Of a stretch of 19,219 nt of DNA, positions 2,750 through 19,219 are shown piece by piece. Location of the stretch: the UHGV virus genome UHGV-0267650. One strand, written 5' to 3'. The position numbers and the translations under genes were made by a program. Position 1 is the first letter of the stretch; every line of letters begins with the position of its first letter. This stretch comes from a virus. Below the pieces are notes generated by a model. The model was not told the origin of the DNA, did not search any database, and worked only from the letters and a program-made list of their open reading frames with translations.

Positions 2750-3294
2750 TAACCCAAAGCATCATTGACGGGCTTCAGCACCTTGCGTTCAAACCACGTC
2801 AGTTTTTCTTCATCCTCTCCGGCAGACTGGCCACCGGACTGTCCCGCACTACCGGCAGTTTGTTTTTTTGCGGTCGTCTTACCTGTTGCCCTGGCCTCTC
2901 GCTTTTCCTGCACGCTGATATGTTCCGCCAGTGTGAATGTCACCAGCCAGGACATTTTCCCGTCCTGCTGGGGTGCATCCAGCATCCCGCTGAACGTTGC
3001 TTCACGAAAATTAACAGCACGGGCAACTTCATGCGCCACGCGGTACTTCTGACGATTACCACTGGCATCGGTAGCACTGGCCAGCTCAAAAATACGCTTG
3101 AGTATTTCAGGCTGTTTAAAAGGTATTTCCCCGCTGATCCGCAGTTCCTTTCCCTTTGCTCCCTGCTCTGATTTTGTTGTGGCGCTGGTCTGGCCGGACT
3201 GATCTTTATCCTGAAACTGCTGTGAAACAGTCACCCGCATGTTTTTCAGCTGGATGGCCTCGCCATTAAGCGCCAGTGTCGGGATCGAAGTCAT
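2749..3294 (-). CDS. Hypothetical protein within the tail operon (181 aa), function unknown
   Basis: Long - strand ORF packed between neighbours; overlaps the upstream ORF by 29 nt and shares position 2749 with the start of the spike gene. Contains a low-complexity Q/S/T/G/K-rich segment. No family recognised. Confidence 0.45.
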   Translation of the reverse strand: MTSIPTLALNGEAIQLKNMRVTVSQQFQDKDQSGQTSATTKSEQGAKGKELRISGEIPFKQPEILKRIFELASATDASGNRQKYRVAHEVARAVNFREATFSGMLDAPQQDGKMSWLVTFTLAEHISVQEKREARATGKTTAKKQTAGSAGQSGGQSAGEDEEKLTWFERKVLKPVNDALG

Positions 3295-3991
3295 GAATCA
3301 TTCCCTTTATTCCATCAAGATTATCGCCAACCAGCATCATTGCAGCGGTGTACACGGCAGACTGCTGCGGAATGTCCTCCACCAGTTCCAGTAACGTGGT
3401 GCCGGTGTCTCCGCTGGCAGTAAAAACCCACGCTCTGGCACTCTTCCCCTGTAAATCATTCAGGCCGCTGGCCACATCACTGATAAGCTGGTCACGCATC
3501 TGCGTGAACTCGCCCAGCTGTTTTTTCAGCCCTTCGATATCAAACCCGGCACCCGCCGCCTTTTGTGCCTGGCTGATTGCCGCAGCAGATAAAGCTGCCC
3601 TGCTGGTTGGTACAGACAACGGAATGGGCGCAGGTAACGCAGCGGCGGTTTTCGCAGGGATCTGCATCTTTTCAATAGCCAGCGCTGCGGCGGATTGCGC
3701 CAGCCGTTTGACCTGTGTGAATGCCGGGGCGGGGAAAATCCCGACCAGGTTATTCAGGCTGGCCATAAAGTTTTCCTGTGTCTGTCCGGTGACCATCATA
3801 ATCACCACGTCCACATTCCCCCCTGTTCCGGCCAGGCGTTCAGCAAGATAGCGAACAGCATTAACCGGGCTGAGATATGCCCCGTTTGCTGTCTGCTGTC
3901 CCAGCCCATAAATCCACGGATGCGCAGGGACGATCGAACAGTTCAGCGCAGCAACAGAATCCGTGAAGGCCAGACGTGCTTCACGCCACAT
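3266..3991 (-). CDS. Hypothetical protein within the tail operon (~241 aa), function unknown; apparently two domains joined by an Ala/Pro-rich linker
   Basis: The ORF track gives 3266..4027, but the ATG at 3991 is preceded by GGAGG at about -9, so I prefer it as the start. It overlaps the Tfa stop by 11 nt. Ala/Pro-rich linker AAALAIEKMQIPAKTAAALPAPIPLSVPTSRAALSAAAIS. No family recognised. Confidence 0.45.
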   Translation of the reverse strand: MWREARLAFTDSVAALNCSIVPAHPWIYGLGQQTANGAYLSPVNAVRYLAERLAGTGGNVDVVIMMVTGQTQENFMASLNNLVGIFPAPAFTQVKRLAQSAAALAIEKMQIPAKTAAALPAPIPLSVPTSRAALSAAAISQAQKAAGAGFDIEGLKKQLGEFTQMRDQLISDVASGLNDLQGKSARAWVFTASGDTGTTLLELVEDIPQQSAVYTAAMMLVGDNLDGIKGMIHDFDPDTGA

Positions 3992-4568: not shown

Positions 4569-6142
4569 TATGCGAGTCTCACTATGTAGTTAAATGCAAT
4601 ATTCTTAACGGTCGTTTCTGCGTTGCCCGACGCGACGACGGTAATGGTGTGACTGTGTGCGCCAATGGCTACGGTATGAGAGTGAGCGCCAATACCTACG
4701 GAGTGATTATGTGCGCCAATGGCTACGGTGTGCGCGTGGTTTCCCGCTGAACTGGTATTTACGGTATATGCAGTACCACTTCCGCCTGCTGATCTGGCTA
4801 TTCCTGAACCATCAGTGCCTCGCGTGGTAAAACCGTGTGCGTGCGCCCCTGTCGTATTTGTCGTTTTTGTACCGTGGTCAAACGTACTCGCCGTTTTAGT
4901 ACCGTAATCAAATGAGGATGTTGATTTCGTTCCCAGATCGGTACTTGATGCACTGGCAGTGTGAGCATGGGATTTATTGCCATCATCTTCACAGGACAAT
5001 ACTGCGCGGCCATCTGGTTTTCCTTTGATTGTCTGGCGGCGCATGTCAGTAATAACACCCGATGGATACGCAGCAGCCAGCAAAGGATATGCCGCTGTAT
5101 TAAAAGACTGCCCTTGCATAATTGCCCATCCAGTAGGTGGGATATCTGTTGGCCAGGGAAGCGGCACACCAACCGGCAGAACATCACTACGACTTAAAAC
5201 GGCCAGTTCACCCAGATCCAGGCTTTTTCTTGCCTTTACCTTGTCGTTAACATCAGCAAGGTTTGCATCCTTACGCAAAAAATCGATGCTGGCCTGCTGT
5301 TCTCCCAGGTTACCTTTTGGCCGTAAATCCGTGATGTTGCCATCCACATCAATGCTGGCCACCGCAAACACGTAATGCTGAACCCCGTTCTGAACGTAAT
5401 CAGCAAGATTTGCTGCCACCGTGATTTTGCTCTGCACATTCCAGACACTAGTCAGTGTCCCTGTCCAGCACACATCCAGCCAGACTTTTACCGGCTTTGT
5501 CGTCACCGTAATATTCTGGTTCGCTGCCAGTGACGCACGAAGTCCAGCCACATAACCCGTGCCTTTCGTGACAAAAAACTGATTGCCGGTTTTGGCTACC
5601 AGATACCCGTCACCAAAAAACGCCGCCGCGCCATAAATATCCATATTTTCCAGGCGCTGGCGCTCATCCATTCCGGCCATACGCGCGGTGAAATCAATCT
5701 GCCAGGTTTCAGCAGGCGTACTAATCCCGGTTTCCGTCTGTGCGCCGTTGTACTCCATCAGAAACGAGCGGGTCAGCACGTTTCCCTGTTGCCCTTCTTT
5801 TGTTTTCAGTTTCTGCTGTGATGGTGCATGGACAATCATTGCCAGCGTACCGCTGGCCTTATTGAGCAGACCGATCCAGTTAAAACTGAAATCACCCACA
5901 TCTGCGCCCAGCACTACGGAATAAACCACCCCATTTTCATTCACCACACCCGTGCGGGTAACAGCCTGCCGGTGAACAATCTGTGCTGTCGGGGGTAACA
6001 CTTCATTACGGTCAACAGGTGTATCCGGGTTTAAATCCGGCACACTGGCAAATACAAATTCGTCCAGTAGTACCGGTTCACCCGTAGCGCCCTGTTGCGC
6101 TTTCCAGTTTTCAAATGCCAGTGTGATGGCTGTCTGTGACAT
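4568..6142 (-). CDS. Tail fiber protein (P2 gpH / Mu gpS-like N-terminus; His-rich repeat C-terminal tip)
   Basis: 524-aa ORF with AAGGAG about 8 nt upstream of the ATG. The N-terminal ~100 aa resemble the conserved N-terminal domain of P2 H / Mu S fibers. The C-terminus carries tandem 11-aa repeats rich in H-x-H ([32 protein letters not shown]), and the gene is followed by a Tfa gene. Confidence 0.75.
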
Positions 6143-12233: not shown

Positions 12234-13357
12234 GCGCTGGCCTCCAGACTTGCATCCAGTAACAGACTGATGGTGATCTGCAGCGGTACTTCATACGTAC
12301 GCACCACAATGTAAATATCCACCGCCTTTTTGTTCTTCCAGACAATGGTCACGTCACCGTCCTGTGGAGGTTTCACCTCGCCCGGAAATGACACGCCGTT
12401 AATGCTGGCCGCAGTGGACATTTCCCGCAGCGGACGGGCAAACAGCGTCTGGTGTGCGGCAATACTGCCCGGTGTACTGTTAAGTGAGCGATCGGCAATC
12501 TTACCGATGGCCAGCAGACGGACGCGGCGTGCTGCCTTATCCACAATACGCAGCGTCTCAATGGACTGGTAATCGCCGCCCTCAACGTCCAGCGTGCGCC
12601 CGTCAGCCCAGTAAAAACCGTCATAGTCCGGATACCACATCGGCACGCTGTAGCGCTGTGCCTCCAGCGCCTGAAGGGTCGCCAGTTCCAGCGTTTCGCC
12701 GGCACCGTCTTTTGGCAGTTCATCGCTTCCCAGACTCAGCAACGCGCCTGTTTTCACCCGCGCCGGACTGTCGGCAATAGTGACAGCACGATTGCAGAGA
12801 CGACCAGCCAGCACGCCCGGTTCATTCCCCCAGAGACGGGGTACCAGCTGTACCGCTTTTTCCGCGATACCTTCCTGAAGGGTGGACAGACGCACCAGAT
12901 AATCCGCCTGGGCTTCATCCTGCTGCATCCCCTGAACCGCCAGAATGAACCACACCCAGCGCCCGTATTTAGCAATCAGTTCAGATCGCAGCGTTGCCGC
13001 CTGGTTAATCTGCGCTTTCGCGGCCACATCATCAGACAGCACCACACCCTCCACCGAACAGGAAACCTGTGCGGCCTTAACGGCATCCACCCATGCCCCC
13101 GGCTCACTGTCTGCGGCCAGCACATGAACAAATCCCCACCAGTTCTGGCCGGCGTTCGCCAGTGCGGCCAGCACATCACTTTTTAACGGGCTGTCACCCT
13201 CGCCCAGCAGCGCATCAAAATCACTCTGTGCGTTAACTGCCAGCGTCTTACCTACATTTTTGGTTCCCGTGCCGATAAACAGCAGCGTGCGCTCCACTTC
13301 CGTGGTTTCACCCAGCAGCTGATTTACCTGGTTTACGGTCACAATTGGCCAGGTCAT
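12230..13357 (-). CDS. Contractile tail sheath protein (P2 gpFI-like in size and position)
   Basis: 375-aa ORF preceded by GGGGGAG, followed by the tube-sized gene. Called from size and gene order, not from a recognised motif. Confidence 0.5.
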   Translation of the reverse strand: MTWPIVTVNQVNQLLGETTEVERTLLFIGTGTKNVGKTLAVNAQSDFDALLGEGDSPLKSDVLAALANAGQNWWGFVHVLAADSEPGAWVDAVKAAQVSCSVEGVVLSDDVAAKAQINQAATLRSELIAKYGRWVWFILAVQGMQQDEAQADYLVRLSTLQEGIAEKAVQLVPRLWGNEPGVLAGRLCNRAVTIADSPARVKTGALLSLGSDELPKDGAGETLELATLQALEAQRYSVPMWYPDYDGFYWADGRTLDVEGGDYQSIETLRIVDKAARRVRLLAIGKIADRSLNSTPGSIAAHQTLFARPLREMSTAASINGVSFPGEVKPPQDGDVTIVWKNKKAVDIYIVVRTYEVPLQITISLLLDASLEASA

Positions 13358-14058
13358 GCTCTCCCCCTGATATCCTGCGCGTTAACATCCCAGCCGAACC
13401 CGATAGCCTGCAGCTGTCGCGCCAGCGCTTTGTTAAAATCATCCTGACCTATCCCCAGAAACGCCCTGGCAGGTAAATCAATCTGCCAGGACGTTTTGAC
13501 CGGTTTGTCCTCCAGTATCCGGATAAGCAAACCTGCCTGTCTGGCGGTCATCCTTTCCTGTATTTCCTTATAACCGGGCTTACGCCAGCGCTTACCGCGC
13601 CTGACTTTATACCCGGCCTTGCGCAGACGTTTCGCCTGTCGAAGTGATGCAGGCTTGTCCCCCTGCTCACGGCCTTCCACCTGCTTACGGTTGACGGTCA
13701 CGCTCATGCCGTTCTGCTGGACATACCCCACCACGCCGGCAGGCAGATTTCCCTTCGCATTCCGGTAATGACCACCGGCCAGATACAGCCTGACCGACTC
13801 CGTTTCAGGCATTTCCCGGATGCGGATCAGTTTCGGCATATTGCGCAACATTTTGCCTTTACGCCGGGTCTGCCGCGCCTGCCACTTATCACCCTCCGGC
13901 GACTGCTGATTGCGCACATTACGCTTTGCTGCGGCTTCCACGCCGTATTTCGCCATACGCCACAACAGCCGGCGACGTTTCGCAGAAGGTAAATCCAGCT
14001 TTTTCAGCGCGTCCTGGAGCTGGCGGAACTGTTCCTTGTTCAGCTCGCCATTTATCAT
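13354..14058 (-). CDS. Virion morphogenesis / tail completion protein (P2 gpS / Mu gpG family-like)
   Basis: 234-aa highly basic ORF. The segment SPEGDKWQARQTRRKGKMLR resembles the conserved region of gpS-family proteins as I recall it. Lies between the head-completion and sheath genes. Confidence 0.5.
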   Translation of the reverse strand: MINGELNKEQFRQLQDALKKLDLPSAKRRRLLWRMAKYGVEAAAKRNVRNQQSPEGDKWQARQTRRKGKMLRNMPKLIRIREMPETESVRLYLAGGHYRNAKGNLPAGVVGYVQQNGMSVTVNRKQVEGREQGDKPASLRQAKRLRKAGYKVRRGKRWRKPGYKEIQERMTARQAGLLIRILEDKPVKTSWQIDLPARAFLGIGQDDFNKALARQLQAIGFGWDVNAQDIRGRA

Positions 14059-14537
14059 TCCTGCCCCTCACTGACCGGGATCACCGTCACCTCATCAGCC
14101 GTCCAGACTTCGGGGTTAGCCAGCTTCCAGCGCTGACCATCAAACGGGATCTGGCCTTTGGGATCGGGAACCAGATTCAGTTCCTCCACCATTGGCAGCG
14201 TCACCACCATGATGGCGGTTTCCTGGTCGATGGTTTCGATATCAAACTCCGGCAGCTCGGCGTCAATGCCGGTTTCCTCAAAGAGCGTGCGCTCATCCTG
14301 GCAAAGCCACGACATAAACAAAGCCATCAGGATTTTGGGATCGTACTCGCGGTAGGGATAACGCTCCCACGTCAGCACGGCGTTATAACGGATGATGGCA
14401 ATACGGTACTGCCCCAGCCCGGTGTCCCGCTGTGCCGGGATGAACGCGATCTCGTCCATCTGGCTGTCAAATCCCTGCATTGCCCGTCTGGGCATGTTGG
14501 CAATGAGAAAATCGGTTAATTCCGTTAACTGGCTCAT
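14055..14537 (-). CDS. Tail completion protein, gpR-like (tentative)
   Basis: 160-aa acidic ORF between the L-like and S-like genes with start/stop overlaps on both sides. The call rests on position only. Confidence 0.35.
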   Translation of the reverse strand: MSQLTELTDFLIANMPRRAMQGFDSQMDEIAFIPAQRDTGLGQYRIAIIRYNAVLTWERYPYREYDPKILMALFMSWLCQDERTLFEETGIDAELPEFDIETIDQETAIMVVTLPMVEELNLVPDPKGQIPFDGQRWKLANPEVWTADEVTVIPVSEGQE

Positions 14538-14986
14538 ATCATGGCCACCGTAATGCGTTTCAGCCCTTTGATGCGGCGTACTGCCAGTGTGGACTCTGCA
14601 ATCAGGCTGGAGCGGGTTTCGTCACTTTCCTGCCCCGGATGGCTCTCACGGCGACCAACAGAGGCAAACTCGCCCATCAAATCAGCTTTGGCACGTGCAT
14701 ATACCGCTTTGCGATAACGGGCGCACAACAGATTTTCGCCGTCAATTTCCACGCCCGGAACGTGCGCCGCGCGCTCATGGCCAACGCTGCGATACCTTGC
14801 CGCCACACTGACCAGATCATCATTGATTTCGCCGGCTGCAGTCAGCAGCGCCTGGCGGATGGTGGCCGCATCAATATCGGCCGGAATGGTGCGCTGGGAC
14901 TGAAAATCTTTCACGCTCAGGTCAGGCCAGAAGCCATCATTCGTCAGAGTGGCATCGTCAAAATCAATTGAAGTTCCGCTGAACAT
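14534..14986 (-). CDS. L: Head completion/stabilisation protein (P2 gpL-like)
   Basis: The ORF track extends to a GTG at 15025. The ATG at 14986 has a good RBS (GGAGAAACAGG then ATG) and gives ~150 aa. Position after the small terminase gene and sequence character fit gpL. Confidence 0.55.
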   Translation of the reverse strand: MFSGTSIDFDDATLTNDGFWPDLSVKDFQSQRTIPADIDAATIRQALLTAAGEINDDLVSVAARYRSVGHERAAHVPGVEIDGENLLCARYRKAVYARAKADLMGEFASVGRRESHPGQESDETRSSLIAESTLAVRRIKGLKRITVAMI

Positions 14987-15000
14987 CCTGTTTCTCCGGA

Positions 15001-15070
15001 AAAAAGCGGGCTGACCGGTTTCCACGGGCGATACGCTTATGCGATCCCCTCCACCGCGCCCGCTTTCGGG
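15001..15070 (-). terminator. Terminator/attenuator-like structured element with a U6 tract upstream of the L gene
   Basis: On the - strand transcript AAAGCGGGC can pair with GCCCGCUUUUUU, enclosing ~41 nt of internally pairing sequence (GGGCG...CGCCC), and is followed by six U residues. It lies in the 54-nt gap between the 63-aa ORF and the L RBS. Confidence 0.3.
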
Positions 15071-15079
15071 TCGGTAGTC

Positions 15080-15271
15080 TTACTCGCCGCGTTTTGCGGC
15101 CTGAATCTCACCTTCTTCAAACCACGCATCAGATGCGCGACCGTCAGCAGTCTGATAATGGATCAGATACTGATTGCAGCTGTTGGTGTACTCCGCACGG
15201 GCTTTGATATGCCCCTCTTCGCCGCTAATGGAAACTTCAACAACCTGGCCTAACTCATGCTTAAACGACAT
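15080..15271 (-). CDS. Small hypothetical protein (63 aa) inserted between the small terminase and head completion genes
   Basis: ORF with SD-like GGGAG about 8 nt upstream of the ATG, beginning 1 nt after the M-like stop. P2 has no gene at this position as I recall. Faint resemblance to small YodC/DUF2158-type proteins, from memory only. Confidence 0.4.
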   Translation of the reverse strand: MSFKHELGQVVEVSISGEEGHIKARAEYTNSCNQYLIHYQTADGRASDAWFEEGEIQAAKRGE

Positions 15272-15272
15272 A

Positions 15273-15986
15273 TCAAACTCCCGTAGACTCTTTTTTCAGC
15301 GCCCGCAGACGCGCAGCAATACGCTGCAACATCGTGCCAACACCACATTTAGGGTCGAATCCCTTCGCCTGCTCCAGCAGTTCCTTAGCCCGGAGCAATA
15401 CTTCCCTGTCTTCCGTTGCCGCTGCGCGTGGCTCTCCGTTTTCATCGCGTAGCAGGTGCAGACCGGCAAACTTCAGGTATTTGGCCTTAATGACCTCATA
15501 CACATTCCAGTGCTGCGTCACGTTTTCCAGCGTACGGCCAAAATACGGCTCCACATCATGCCCCTGTACGGCTTCCGCTTCCGCCCAGGACAACACCGTA
15601 TCCGCCACAAACACCGGGAACGCGCTGCCGAACGCGGCCGGGGTTTCCTGCCCCCGCTGGATTGCCACATCCGCCCAGTCCAGCGCCTGGTCAAACTGGC
15701 CTGTATCAAACAGCCAGACGACACACCAGGCAAAAACAGGATTCTGTTGCACACTGTCACCTTCCAGCCAGGATTGCGCGGTTGGCATCCAGCGCGGTAA
15801 CAGCACATCACGCTTAAATTCCATTCGCTCAGCGCGGCTTTCAATCGCTGCAGCTGCGGCGACATCTTTCTCCAGCGCGACAATCTGAATATGCAGGCTG
15901 GTTTCCGTGTCCAGAGACTGCTGCTGTCGCAGTAACCGCTCCGCTTCAATTCGTGCGCTGTGGCGCTGTGCCGGTGACAGTTGCAT
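15273..15986 (-). CDS. M: Terminase small (endonuclease) subunit, P2 gpM-like
   Basis: 237-aa ORF with N-terminal SPAQRH and internal LHLLRDENGE, matching P2 gpM as recalled (SPAQRH..., ...LFLRDGGD). RBS AAGGGGGA. Located between the capsid and head-completion genes. Confidence 0.7.
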   Translation of the reverse strand: MQLSPAQRHSARIEAERLLRQQQSLDTETSLHIQIVALEKDVAAAAAIESRAERMEFKRDVLLPRWMPTAQSWLEGDSVQQNPVFAWCVVWLFDTGQFDQALDWADVAIQRGQETPAAFGSAFPVFVADTVLSWAEAEAVQGHDVEPYFGRTLENVTQHWNVYEVIKAKYLKFAGLHLLRDENGEPRAAATEDREVLLRAKELLEQAKGFDPKCGVGTMLQRIAARLRALKKESTGV

Positions 15987-15996
15987 TAAATCCCCC

Positions 15997-17025
15997 TTAC
16001 TCGCCTGCCGGAGGCGCGACAGGTGCCCCGATAGCTACCGCACTTTCATCAAACGCGGCGTACAGTTCCGGATACTCAACCGCATAACCTTCGTTACGCA
16101 GGTATTTGTTTTCGTACTGTTTACGGTCTTCCACAAACTCCGCTTTACGCTGACGCGTGCCGCGCTGGGTGTAGATGTGCAGGTTTGGCAGTGTCGTAAC
16201 AATCATGCGTTTGCCTGGCATAAACGGCGGTACGTAAGCCGTGCGGCCAGCGATGCTGTCAGACAGCAGTTGCGCAGCGATCTTCTCCGTGGGTTTGTCT
16301 GCTTTCTGATACAGACGGAACGACTCCGCCGCGACCAGATCAGCGCCGACAAGAACCACCAGGCGTGGATCATTACGGTACTGTGCCGGGATTTTGGCGT
16401 TGATAAGGTCGGAGGCCATTGCATCCAGCGACACGTAATCGCCTTTCCCGTCACCGTCAAGCACCACCGCATCAGTGATGATCTGCTGGCCGTCCTTCCA
16501 CTCTTTGACGATCTGATGCCAGCCCTTGTTCACATCCTCGCCGTTCGGGTTGGTTTCCGCGTTCGTGGTTTCGGCTACTTTGGTACCGTTAAAGCCGATA
16601 CGCAGCATATCCAGCGCAAACGCCTGATTAGTGAACTCCTGAACACGCTGGAAAAACTCGTTTTCATCGCCGGCGTTCGCCCAGACAGAAAGCAACTGCC
16701 AGGTGAGTGCGGCGCATGAGTCGGTCTCGACCAGACTGTAATCATTACCACTCACGCCCACTTTCTTACGGAAGCGGCCATCCAGCACACGCCCGGTATA
16801 CAGGCCAGAGCTGCCAACAGGAACCACCTGCCCCTGCAGCTGATCGACATCGGCAACGGTGATCAGATTCAGGAAATCAGACTGCTCCATCAGCGCATTG
16901 CGCAGCTGAGTTTCTTTGGGGTCGGTGAGTGCAAACCAGCGTTCGCTGTCAGTCGCCCCGTAGGATTCACGCAGCCCGGTGTGATACTGAAGCAGAAACT
17001 CACGGGCTTTCGCATTTAATTGCAT
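15997..17025 (-). CDS. N: Major capsid protein, P2 gpN-like
   Basis: 342-aa ORF with RBS AAGGA. DYVSLDA, DPRLVVLVG and NLHIYT correspond to P2 gpN DYASLDA, DPDLVVIVG and NLSIYY (recalled). Confidence 0.85.
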   Translation of the reverse strand: MQLNAKAREFLLQYHTGLRESYGATDSERWFALTDPKETQLRNALMEQSDFLNLITVADVDQLQGQVVPVGSSGLYTGRVLDGRFRKKVGVSGNDYSLVETDSCAALTWQLLSVWANAGDENEFFQRVQEFTNQAFALDMLRIGFNGTKVAETTNAETNPNGEDVNKGWHQIVKEWKDGQQIITDAVVLDGDGKGDYVSLDAMASDLINAKIPAQYRNDPRLVVLVGADLVAAESFRLYQKADKPTEKIAAQLLSDSIAGRTAYVPPFMPGKRMIVTTLPNLHIYTQRGTRQRKAEFVEDRKQYENKYLRNEGYAVEYPELYAAFDESAVAIGAPVAPPAGE

Positions 17026-17059
17026 ATTCTTTTTCCTTAAAGAAAAGTAGTGTTATCCC

Positions 17060-17899
17060 TTACAGGAAATTGAAGCCTTTTTTGCCCTTGCTGAATTTCT
17101 TGTCCGGCAGTTGAGTAACTTTGTTATTCAGCTTGCTGAAGTTTTTCACCAGCTCCGGCAGGTTCCCCACCAGACGCGCAAAATCTTCGGTGTCCACCAC
17201 TTCCTTCACGGTGTCCACATCGTCCTGCACATCAGATACCGCCTCTTCCGCCTCACCCAGTCGGGTTTCAATAGCAGATACGCGCTTATCAATGGCATCC
17301 AGCGCTTCAGCCAGCGCCTGTAAGGCATCAGACTGTGAAGGTTCCTGCTCCGGGGTCTGCTCCGGTTCTTCGATACTGAAAAAATGGCGCCAGCCCTTTT
17401 TCGCTGTCTTTGACATTCCCTTTTCCTTTTTAAATTCCCTGACTTCATCAAACGCCAGCGGCTTGTATGGTCCGATGCGTTTTCCCCTGGTGCGGCTGAA
17501 ACGTAACCGTGTGGTGCTTACCCCGGCCGGACTGTCAGTAATGGCCAGTCCCTCAAGATAGGTTTTCCCGGTATTTCTGAAATTCCCGTCTGGTGTAAAC
17601 TCCGGTGATAAAAATAAAAGCTGCCCCTTCGCATTCGCCTGAAGCAATGCAATAGCCGGACAGAGTCGGGCATATAAACGAAGAATACCTTCATCATCCC
17701 GCTCTGCTTTTACTTCCAGCACTTCCCCCATATTCCCGAAATTGCGGGTATGTTCCGGCCATAACAGCGCGGTATATAAGTTGGGGTCATATAATTCAGC
17801 GGCATCAAGTAACCATTGTTCTTCAATGGTTCTTTTATCGACCGTTTCACCCGCAGTGGCGATACAAATCCAGTTTGTTGCCAGTTGTGAACCTGACAT
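17060..17899 (-). CDS. O: Capsid scaffolding protein, P2 gpO-like
   Basis: The ORF track extends to 17959, which is a GTG. The ATG at 17899 has GGAGG upstream, and from there the protein aligns with the P2 gpO N-terminus (...YDPNLYTALLWPEH versus ...FDPRVYGCRINLEH). C-terminal acidic helical region. Confidence 0.8.
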   Translation of the reverse strand: MSGSQLATNWICIATAGETVDKRTIEEQWLLDAAELYDPNLYTALLWPEHTRNFGNMGEVLEVKAERDDEGILRLYARLCPAIALLQANAKGQLLFLSPEFTPDGNFRNTGKTYLEGLAITDSPAGVSTTRLRFSRTRGKRIGPYKPLAFDEVREFKKEKGMSKTAKKGWRHFFSIEEPEQTPEQEPSQSDALQALAEALDAIDKRVSAIETRLGEAEEAVSDVQDDVDTVKEVVDTEDFARLVGNLPELVKNFSKLNNKVTQLPDKKFSKGKKGFNFL

Positions 17900-18041
17900 A
17901 TTGCCTCCATTCCTGCTGCGGTTTTCAGTATCGCCAATAAAATTAACCGCCGCATTCACTTCATTTCGGATATAGGCTATTAGCCGAACACATCAGAAAT
18001 AAAGCGGGATTTAATATACAAACGCCCGTGCATAATGTGCG
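17900..18041. promoter_or_regulatory. Divergent late promoter region between the O-like and P-like genes, with a central imperfect dyad TTCGG-N14-CCGAA at 17964..17987
   Basis: 142-bp AT-rich intergenic region between divergently oriented head genes, as in P2 where the late promoters lie here. -10-like hexamers GATACT (- strand) and TAATAT (+ strand) flank the dyad. Confidence 0.4.
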
Positions 18042-19219
18042 CATGGCTAAATATTCAGAAGAATTAAAAGGCGTTGCGCGGGCGCTTTATTTAAAACGCT
18101 ATACCACGCAGGAAATTGCCAGCGAACTTAATCTGCCTAACAGACGCATTGTCTATTACTGGGCGGAGAAATATTGCTGGGCGGAATTACTCAGTCATGA
18201 ATCCACCGAAGATGCATTAAACCGTCGCATTCAGTCACTGACATTACGTGAAGGGAAATCGGAGCTGGAGCTGCGGGAGCTGGACAATCTCGTTTCTCAC
18301 CTGGTGAAACTACGTGCACAACACAATAAGCATCAGGAAAAGCTGGCAGAAATTAAACACAGTGAAAATGATGCGCCGACGCGTCAGTCCGGTGGCGACG
18401 AAAAGCCCCGGAAACGTGGCAAGTACAAAAAGAACGACATCAGCGGACTGACACAGGAAGATTTTGACCGGTTCGCACTGGAGCACCTTTTCGGCTATCA
18501 GAAACACCTTCGCGCTAATCTTCATCAGCAAATCAGGAACATCCTGAAAAGCCGCCAGATTGGTGCAACCTGGTATTTCTCAATAGAAGCCTTTGAGAAT
18601 GCGGTCATGACAGGCGATCCGCAAATCTTCCTGTCCGCATCAAAGGCTCAGGCGGAAGTATTCCGCAGCTATATCGTCAATATTGCGGAGCAGTATTTCG
18701 GCGTGGAGCTGACGGGAAACCCCATCCGCCTCTCCAACGGCGCGGAGCTGCGATTCCTGTCCACCAACAAGAACACCGCCCAGTCATACAGCGGCCATCT
18801 GTACTGCGATGAATATTTCTGGGTACCCAACTTTGCAAAATTAAACGAAGTGGCCAGCGCGATGGCCACACACGACAAATGGCGAACCACCTACTTTTCC
18901 ACCCCCAGCAGCAAAACGCACCAAGCGTACCCGTTCTGGACTGGTGAAGAATGGAAGCGCGGTGACAAAAAACGCGCGCGCGTACAATTTCCCACGGAGA
19001 AGGAGCTGCGCGACGGTGGACGGTTATGTCCTGATGGACAGTGGCGCTACATCATCACGATGGAAGACGCGATCGCAGGCGGGTTTAATCTCGCCAGCAT
19101 CGGGAAGCTGCGCAACCGCTACAACCGCGACACTTTCAACATGCTGTATATGTGCGTGTTCGTGGACAGCAAGGACAGCGTATTTTCGTTCTCTCACGTG
19201 GAACGCTGCTGTGTAGATC
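18042..19219 (+). CDS. P: Terminase large (ATPase) subunit, P2 gpP-like; 3' end truncated by the window edge
   Basis: Open frame from the ATG at 18042 to the end of the window, 392 codons. SRQIGATWYFS, YFSTPSSK, LCPDGQWRYIITMEDAIAGG and YMCVFVDSKDSVFSF correspond to P2 gpP SRQIGATFYFA, YFSTPST, LCADGQWRQIVTIEDALAGG and FMCEFVDDKASVFPF (recalled). Confidence 0.85.

Follow-up and report, generated by a model that had tools for sequence, protein, structure and literature searches.

Late gene activation in P2-type phages is a textbook example of how a small zinc-finger activator works from about -55, and P2 Ogr is established to recruit RNA polymerase via the alpha subunit. The P2 record (NC_001895) annotates one 'activator binding site; pO, pP promoters' at 3057-3087, lying -56/-55 from each of the starts at 3016 (minus strand) and 3127 (plus strand), and the record of phage 186 (NC_001317) has one B-protein site at 3798-3817 for the divergent pV and p12. 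As both records annotate one, a shared central site is the norm. The P2 late-promoter consensus is TGT-N12-ACA (PMC3931495), and the Ralstonia phages RSA1 and RSY1 have a variant, TGTTGT-N13-ACAACA (PMC5694545). The shared sites of P2 and 186 themselves read TGT-N12-CCA, not ACA, so a missing exact consensus is not by itself diagnostic. To sample the gaps of the P2 clade, viral contigs were scanned with P2 gpO, but every locus recovered was 100% identical to P2, and the records of 186, PsP3 and phiCTX were used instead.

The O/P gap of the window and its dyad

The window analysed here, a stretch of 19,219 nucleotides of the viral genome UHGV-0267650, covers most of the late region of an E. coli Peduoviridae prophage of P2/HP1 type. 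Its head genes, on the minus strand, are P2-type (O-like scaffold, N-like capsid, M-like small terminase and an L-like gene) and its tail genes HP1-type (DUF2586 sheath and HP1 Orf24 tube). The leftward late operon begins with the O-like capsid scaffold gene (17063-17899, minus strand; Pfam Phage_GPO, E = 9.6e-35), which starts with an ATG at 17899, preceded by a Shine-Dalgarno sequence, GGAGG, at 17904-17908 (minus strand) that can be read in the sequence itself and is kept in close relatives. The P-like large terminase gene (18043-19219, plus strand; Pfam Terminase_5 and Terminase_6N) starts with an ATG at 18043 and extends past the window end, leaving an O/P gap of 143 bp (17900-18042). Among named phages Escherichia phage ESSI2_ev239 (Evevirus) is the nearest, with 82% nucleotide identity in the gap; ev129, ev040, ev015, Cronobacter ESSI-2 and Salmonella SI7 are more distant. 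A metagenome contig (L171, 5815-6001) is 98% identical to the window on the O side and ev239-type (82%) in the gap and on the P side, a mixture which places recombination between phage lineages within or beside the promoter gap.

A preliminary description of this DNA had reported a central TTCGG-N14-CCGAA dyad in the gap and no TGT-N12-ACA element. Both observations hold: the dyad is exact at 17965-17988, with extended half-sites TTCGGATAT and TTAGCCGAA, and TGT-N12-ACA has no match in the gap even when one mismatch is allowed. No second dyad with up to two mismatches is present in intergenic sequence anywhere in the window. The dyad region matches no Rfam family and forms no significant hairpin (-5 kcal/mol, z = -1.2). 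Of shuffled versions of the gap, however, 60% contain a perfect 5+5 dyad whose arms are 10-18 nt apart, and no significance can therefore be claimed from the window alone; it comes instead from conservation, as set out below.

The geometry around the dyad is asymmetric. On the O side the predicted -10 is GATACT (17927-17932, minus strand), 32 nt from the dyad, with a predicted start near 17920; 40 of 46 relatives have a homologous O-side hexamer (GATACT, AATACT or AATAAT) at one of two distances from the dyad, 32 or 42 nt. On the P side the conserved, predicted -10 is CATAAT (18031-18036, plus strand), exactly 42 nt past CCGAA. The distance of about 45-48 bp from dyad centre (17976.5) to -10 that had been proposed for both sides thus stands for the O side (44.5-49.5 bp) but not for the P side (54.5-59.5 bp). 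Counted from the predicted starts, the O promoter, a 32-nt arm, has the dyad centre at -56.5, and the P promoter, a 42-nt arm with an extra half-site at -47, has it at -66.5. This third, promoter-proximal half-site, CAGAA (17994-17998, plus strand), lies 10 bp past CCGAA and occupies -49 to -45 of the P promoter. On its O side (17955-17969) the window is 10 bp shorter than ev239-type gaps (L001 17215-17240), which have TGAAATTCGG between two direct repeats of TTCGG; this difference leaves one half-site fewer and brings the dyad one helical turn nearer the O promoter. An inverted repeat, TGCTGCGGTT / AACCGCCGCA (17914-17923 and 17945-17954), flanks the predicted O-promoter -10.

The terminase ATG coincides with the predicted P transcription start. 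As the -10 ends only 6 nt ahead of the ATG, which has no Shine-Dalgarno sequence upstream of it (window 18031-18045), a leaderless P mRNA is predicted. A distance of 6-7 nt is seen in 24 relatives of 46, including K139, and most of the others have leaders of 30-41 nt with AAGGAAG. There is a precedent in the P2 record, where the pV start is the first base of gene V.

Conservation and spacing in related phages

To the 80 genome loci that encode the same clade of Ogr-like protein phage records were added, giving 49 loci with a divergent O/P pair; 46 of these were gathered via the ogr-like gene itself, and the link between activator and site is one of co-occurrence. The exact TTCGG-N13/14-CCGAA dyad is present in 37 of the 49 gaps and, with up to one mismatch, in 45. 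All 37 exact copies lie inside the O/P gap and none elsewhere in the 716.7 kb of the 49 loci, and it is this placement that gives the dyad its significance. Each genome has one dyad, phased to the -10 elements on both sides, in hosts that include Escherichia, Salmonella, Serratia, Xenorhabdus, Brenneria, Morganella, Providencia and Vibrio cholerae. In the alignment of P/O gaps that had been proposed as a check, the CCGAA/TTCGG columns are conserved (1.5-1.9 bits, against about 0.1-0.4 bits in most others), the half-site being almost invariant across the sample, and TGT-N12-ACA is not: the exact element occurs in only two of 46 relatives, at unconserved positions.

The spacing between the proximal half-site and the -10-like hexamer that scores best is quantised, falling into two classes one helical turn apart with few isolated intermediates. 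Of the 46 unique gaps, 43 have a P-side spacing of 41-43 nt and the other three one of 32-33 nt; for the O-side spacing, 33 gaps show 42 nt and seven show 32 nt. The -10 is locked to the dyad irrespective of whether the start codon follows 6-7 nt or 30-41 nt beyond. Only four elements are conserved in the 68 unique 42-nt arms, WTAnCCGAA at -63 to -55, a further half-site, mmGAAtt, at -49 to -43, a G at -33 and mATAAT at -12 to -7; within the second, G is found at -47 in 67 arms, A at -46 in 62 and A at -45 in 63. In the 32-nt arms the dyad arm itself fills -49 to -45, and the invariant is therefore a CCGAA-type half-site near -47 with at least one further half-site upstream on the same helix face. 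Neither a sigma-70 -35/-10 pair in 17800-18150 nor TTGACA-like conservation at -36 to -30 of the 68 arms could be found.

Promoter matrices trained without this window were used to scan it and three complete phage genomes (ev239, ev129 and ESSI-2). In the window the full matrix scores the P promoter at 35.6 bits and every match outside the gap below zero, and the proximal-module matrix (-50 to -7) scores the O promoter at 31.9 bits against 8.8 for the next best non-promoter match. Each of the three phage genomes likewise yields its two gap promoters and, like the window, no further late promoter, and this lineage thus has two detectable late promoters per genome where P2 has four.

The arrangement is repeated in Vibrio phage K139 (NC_003313), which has TTCGG-N14-CCGAA at 15489-15512 in its P16/P17 gap, spaced 42-43 nt from TATGAT and TATGGT. 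The K139 record differs in listing putative sigma-70 -35/-10 elements that overlap the dyad, a reading as ordinary promoters that stands against ours, and it annotates no activator site. The P/O gap of Haemophilus phage HP1 also resembles that of the window, as judged by eye, in having four nGGATAT / ATATCCnAA half-sites that recur every 10 bp, with CACAAT and AAAAAT at 32 nt from the outermost ones, but its inner pair is N24 apart and its half-sites are TTTGG/GTAGG, not TTCGG. The HP1 record also has an unannotated Ogr-like frame, possibly split over two frames, downstream of Q (L006 10420-10670, minus strand; tblastn E = 8e-16). Full-text literature searches returned no description of the motif, though one may exist in subscription journals.

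The Ogr-like gene and its orphan relatives

The window has no Ogr-like open reading frame, in line with the preliminary description, but this absence is an artefact of truncation, as the gene lies just beyond the window edge in near-identical prophages. The candidate for the late activator gene sought elsewhere in the prophage is, in these relatives, an Ogr/Delta zinc-finger gene directly past the portal gene. In a 98% identical prophage (E. coli 2018-18.25PC) a gene for an 'ogr/Delta-like zinc finger family protein' comes right after the portal gene and is followed by a strong terminator, and all four contigs whose O protein is identical to that of the window have a PF04606 gene past the portal gene. 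One of these four, GCA_016503685.1, matches window 12400-19219 at 99.85% identity, and its gap is the same. An Ogr_Delta gene also follows the portal gene in ev239, ev129, ESSI-2 and K139, and in the last of these a zinc-finger protein, orf13, has been described as the ogr homologue at this position (PMC8537503). In P2, by contrast, ogr lies past gene D, not past the portal gene at the end of a P-Q operon. At one locus (L002, 23841-24196) the annotated start of the Ogr-like gene overlaps the portal stop, the likely true start being MRVMKV, as in WP_000457450, at 23895, after GGAG; there is a strong terminator past the gene at 24173-24196 and a possible -10, TAAAAT, at 23856-23861. P, Q and ogr appear, from this arrangement, to form one late operon, which would imply positive feedback.

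The Ogr-like protein of the near-identical prophages scores 58.1 bits with Pfam PF04606, against a gathering cut-off of 26.3, and has a CX2CX22CX4C motif whose four cysteines align with those of P2 Ogr. It shares PHROG 603 with P2 Ogr and is only 21% identical to it, and it fails the P2-Ogr equivalog model (NCBIfam NF007241) with 17.8 bits against a cut-off of 116. No structure of Ogr type was retrieved by a sequence search of solved structures.

At about 28 loci of the same Ogr-like clade the neighbourhood is free of head genes. In Proteus (12 of 12 loci) an orphan ogr-like gene stands among chromosomal genes, divergent from genes for a holin (PF04550) and an M15 peptidase. In each of the 12 a 44-bp array of four half-sites, TTCGG-N5-nTCGG-N14-CCGAn-N5-CCGAA, lies between regulator and holin, exactly 32 nt from GATAAT on the holin side. 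That the same grammar accompanies the same regulator in so unrelated a context argues that the array is this regulator's site. The genetic setting looks like a domesticated lysis or secretion cassette. The orphan gene has its own TGGTTATAAT promoter, and pilus-usher and dihydroxyacetone-kinase genes flank it (L048 4790-6261, L049, L051, L053, L056-L060, L062, L064 and L066). About 16 other loci of the clade, with GGTAACA repeats ahead of the gene, have no such array within 260 nt upstream, which weighs against assigning the array to this regulator. Dense GGTAACA / TGTTACC repeats were seen in the 260 nt upstream of position 6001 at orphan ogr-like genes without head genes nearby (L046, L047, L052, L061, L063, L067, L069-L076 and L078); these loci may be satellite-type elements.

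A probable shared operator and its alternatives

The dyad is, we think with good probability, the core of a shared operator for the Ogr/Delta-type late activator of this prophage. It had been suggested that the activator might have a different specificity, or else that one site might serve both promoters. The first gains support from an activator that belongs to the Ogr/Delta family yet is so distant from P2 Ogr, together with the conservation of CCGAA, and the second from the single dyad per genome phased to both -10 elements; the two suggestions are compatible with each other.

From these data we infer an assembly in which the recognition unit would be a CCGAA half-site (extended, WTAnCCGAA) in place of the TGT/ACA of P2. 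Each divergent promoter would combine a good -10, no -35 and a CCGAA half-site at -49 to -45 on its own coding strand (5'-CCGAA-3'), and would also need at least one upstream half-site on the same helix face. In this arrangement the O promoter would use the left arm of the dyad at -49 to -45, so that the dyad is centred at -56.5, as in P2, and the P promoter would have the right arm at -59 to -55 and the extra CAGAA at -49 to -45, hence a dyad centre at -66.5. The activator, positioned at about -47, presumably recruits RNA polymerase via the alpha subunit, by analogy with P2 Ogr.

The correspondence with P2 is close in layout. Both have the same gene pair (terminase P and scaffold O), one central site, no -35 and an Ogr/Delta zinc-finger activator, and in both the proximal half-site is near -49 to -47. 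Counted from its predicted start, the O promoter of the window would have its dyad centre at -56.5; the P2 site is at -55/-56. The sites themselves differ, TGT-N12-CCA (18 bp) in P2 as against TTCGG-N14-CCGAA (24 bp) in the window, and P2 is without the additional direct-repeat half-sites of the window lineage. Phage 186 is alike in that a single annotated site activates both divergent promoters, but that site, GTTGTGTGGGCGGTTGTCCA, is of TGT-N12-CCA type and its B protein belongs to the P2-Ogr-like group. RSA1 and RSY1 show that the arm sequence and spacer of Ogr-type sites vary by lineage (PMC5694545), though they keep the TGT/ACA core that is missing in the window lineage.

Another protein, such as a host factor or a Cox-like, CII-like or repressor protein, might instead bind the array and activate or repress both late promoters. 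Early-region regulators do vary among the relatives, a CII-like gene being present in some only, so that on sequence alone the regulator could lie outside the window. We nevertheless consider this unlikely, as the early regions vary widely and the array does not, the Proteus array recurs beside an orphan ogr-like gene with no other phage regulator adjacent, and the position of the array matches that of the Ogr and B sites of P2 and 186. We know of no familiar E. coli regulator (e.g. CRP, FNR or IHF) whose consensus the motif matches. It is very improbable that the gap holds a degenerate P2-type TGT-N12-ACA site read with unchanged P2 Ogr specificity. The P2 and 186 sites are themselves imperfect, and in O orientation (minus strand) the window sequence TGTGTTCGGCTAATAGCCTATATCCGAAA loosely resembles P2 TGTGTCAGTGATAAGCCATCCGGGAC by eye if three gaps are allowed, a suggestive alignment that we set aside for the three indels it requires; but no near match to the P2 consensus is present in the gap, the columns that are conserved read CCGAA/TTCGG, the two arms are centred 18-19 bp from each other (N13/N14) as opposed to 15 bp in TGT-N12-ACA, and the activator is so divergent from P2 Ogr. 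Least probable of all is that the dyad is there by chance or serves a purpose other than transcription (as an RNA hairpin, or a packaging or replication site), given that, common as such dyads are in shuffled gaps, this one is conserved across genera amid otherwise unconserved sequence and locked to the -10 elements, has no Rfam counterpart and folds weakly, and that the records of P2, HP1 and 186 place the cohesive ends elsewhere.

Taking the shared-operator reading together with the wider sample, we lean, by a modest balance of probability, towards a joint interpretation in which a distinct Ogr/Delta subfamily, that of the HP1, K139 and ESSI-2 lineages, recognises CCGAA half-sites repeated two to four times, in phase, at 10-bp steps, the sole invariant being a protomer near -47 at each promoter. 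One array would then control all late expression through just two divergent promoters, of which one would give a leaderless terminase mRNA, and the same code would have been co-opted in Proteus for a holin-peptidase cassette.

The paradigm of P2-type late activation is unchanged by this. The Ogr-type DNA code has so far been defined just for the TGT-N12-ACA group, and CCGAA would be a second, well-conserved code, with strict helical phasing; the two would make a natural specificity pair for the study of how Ogr-type proteins read DNA, the more so as the sequence search retrieved no solved structure. Late promoters of the many prophages of HP1/K139/ESSI-2 type in Enterobacterales and Vibrio could also be annotated by a simple rule drawn from the grammar, and it would predict which helper phages and satellites, or which domesticated lysis cassettes, are capable of cross-talk.
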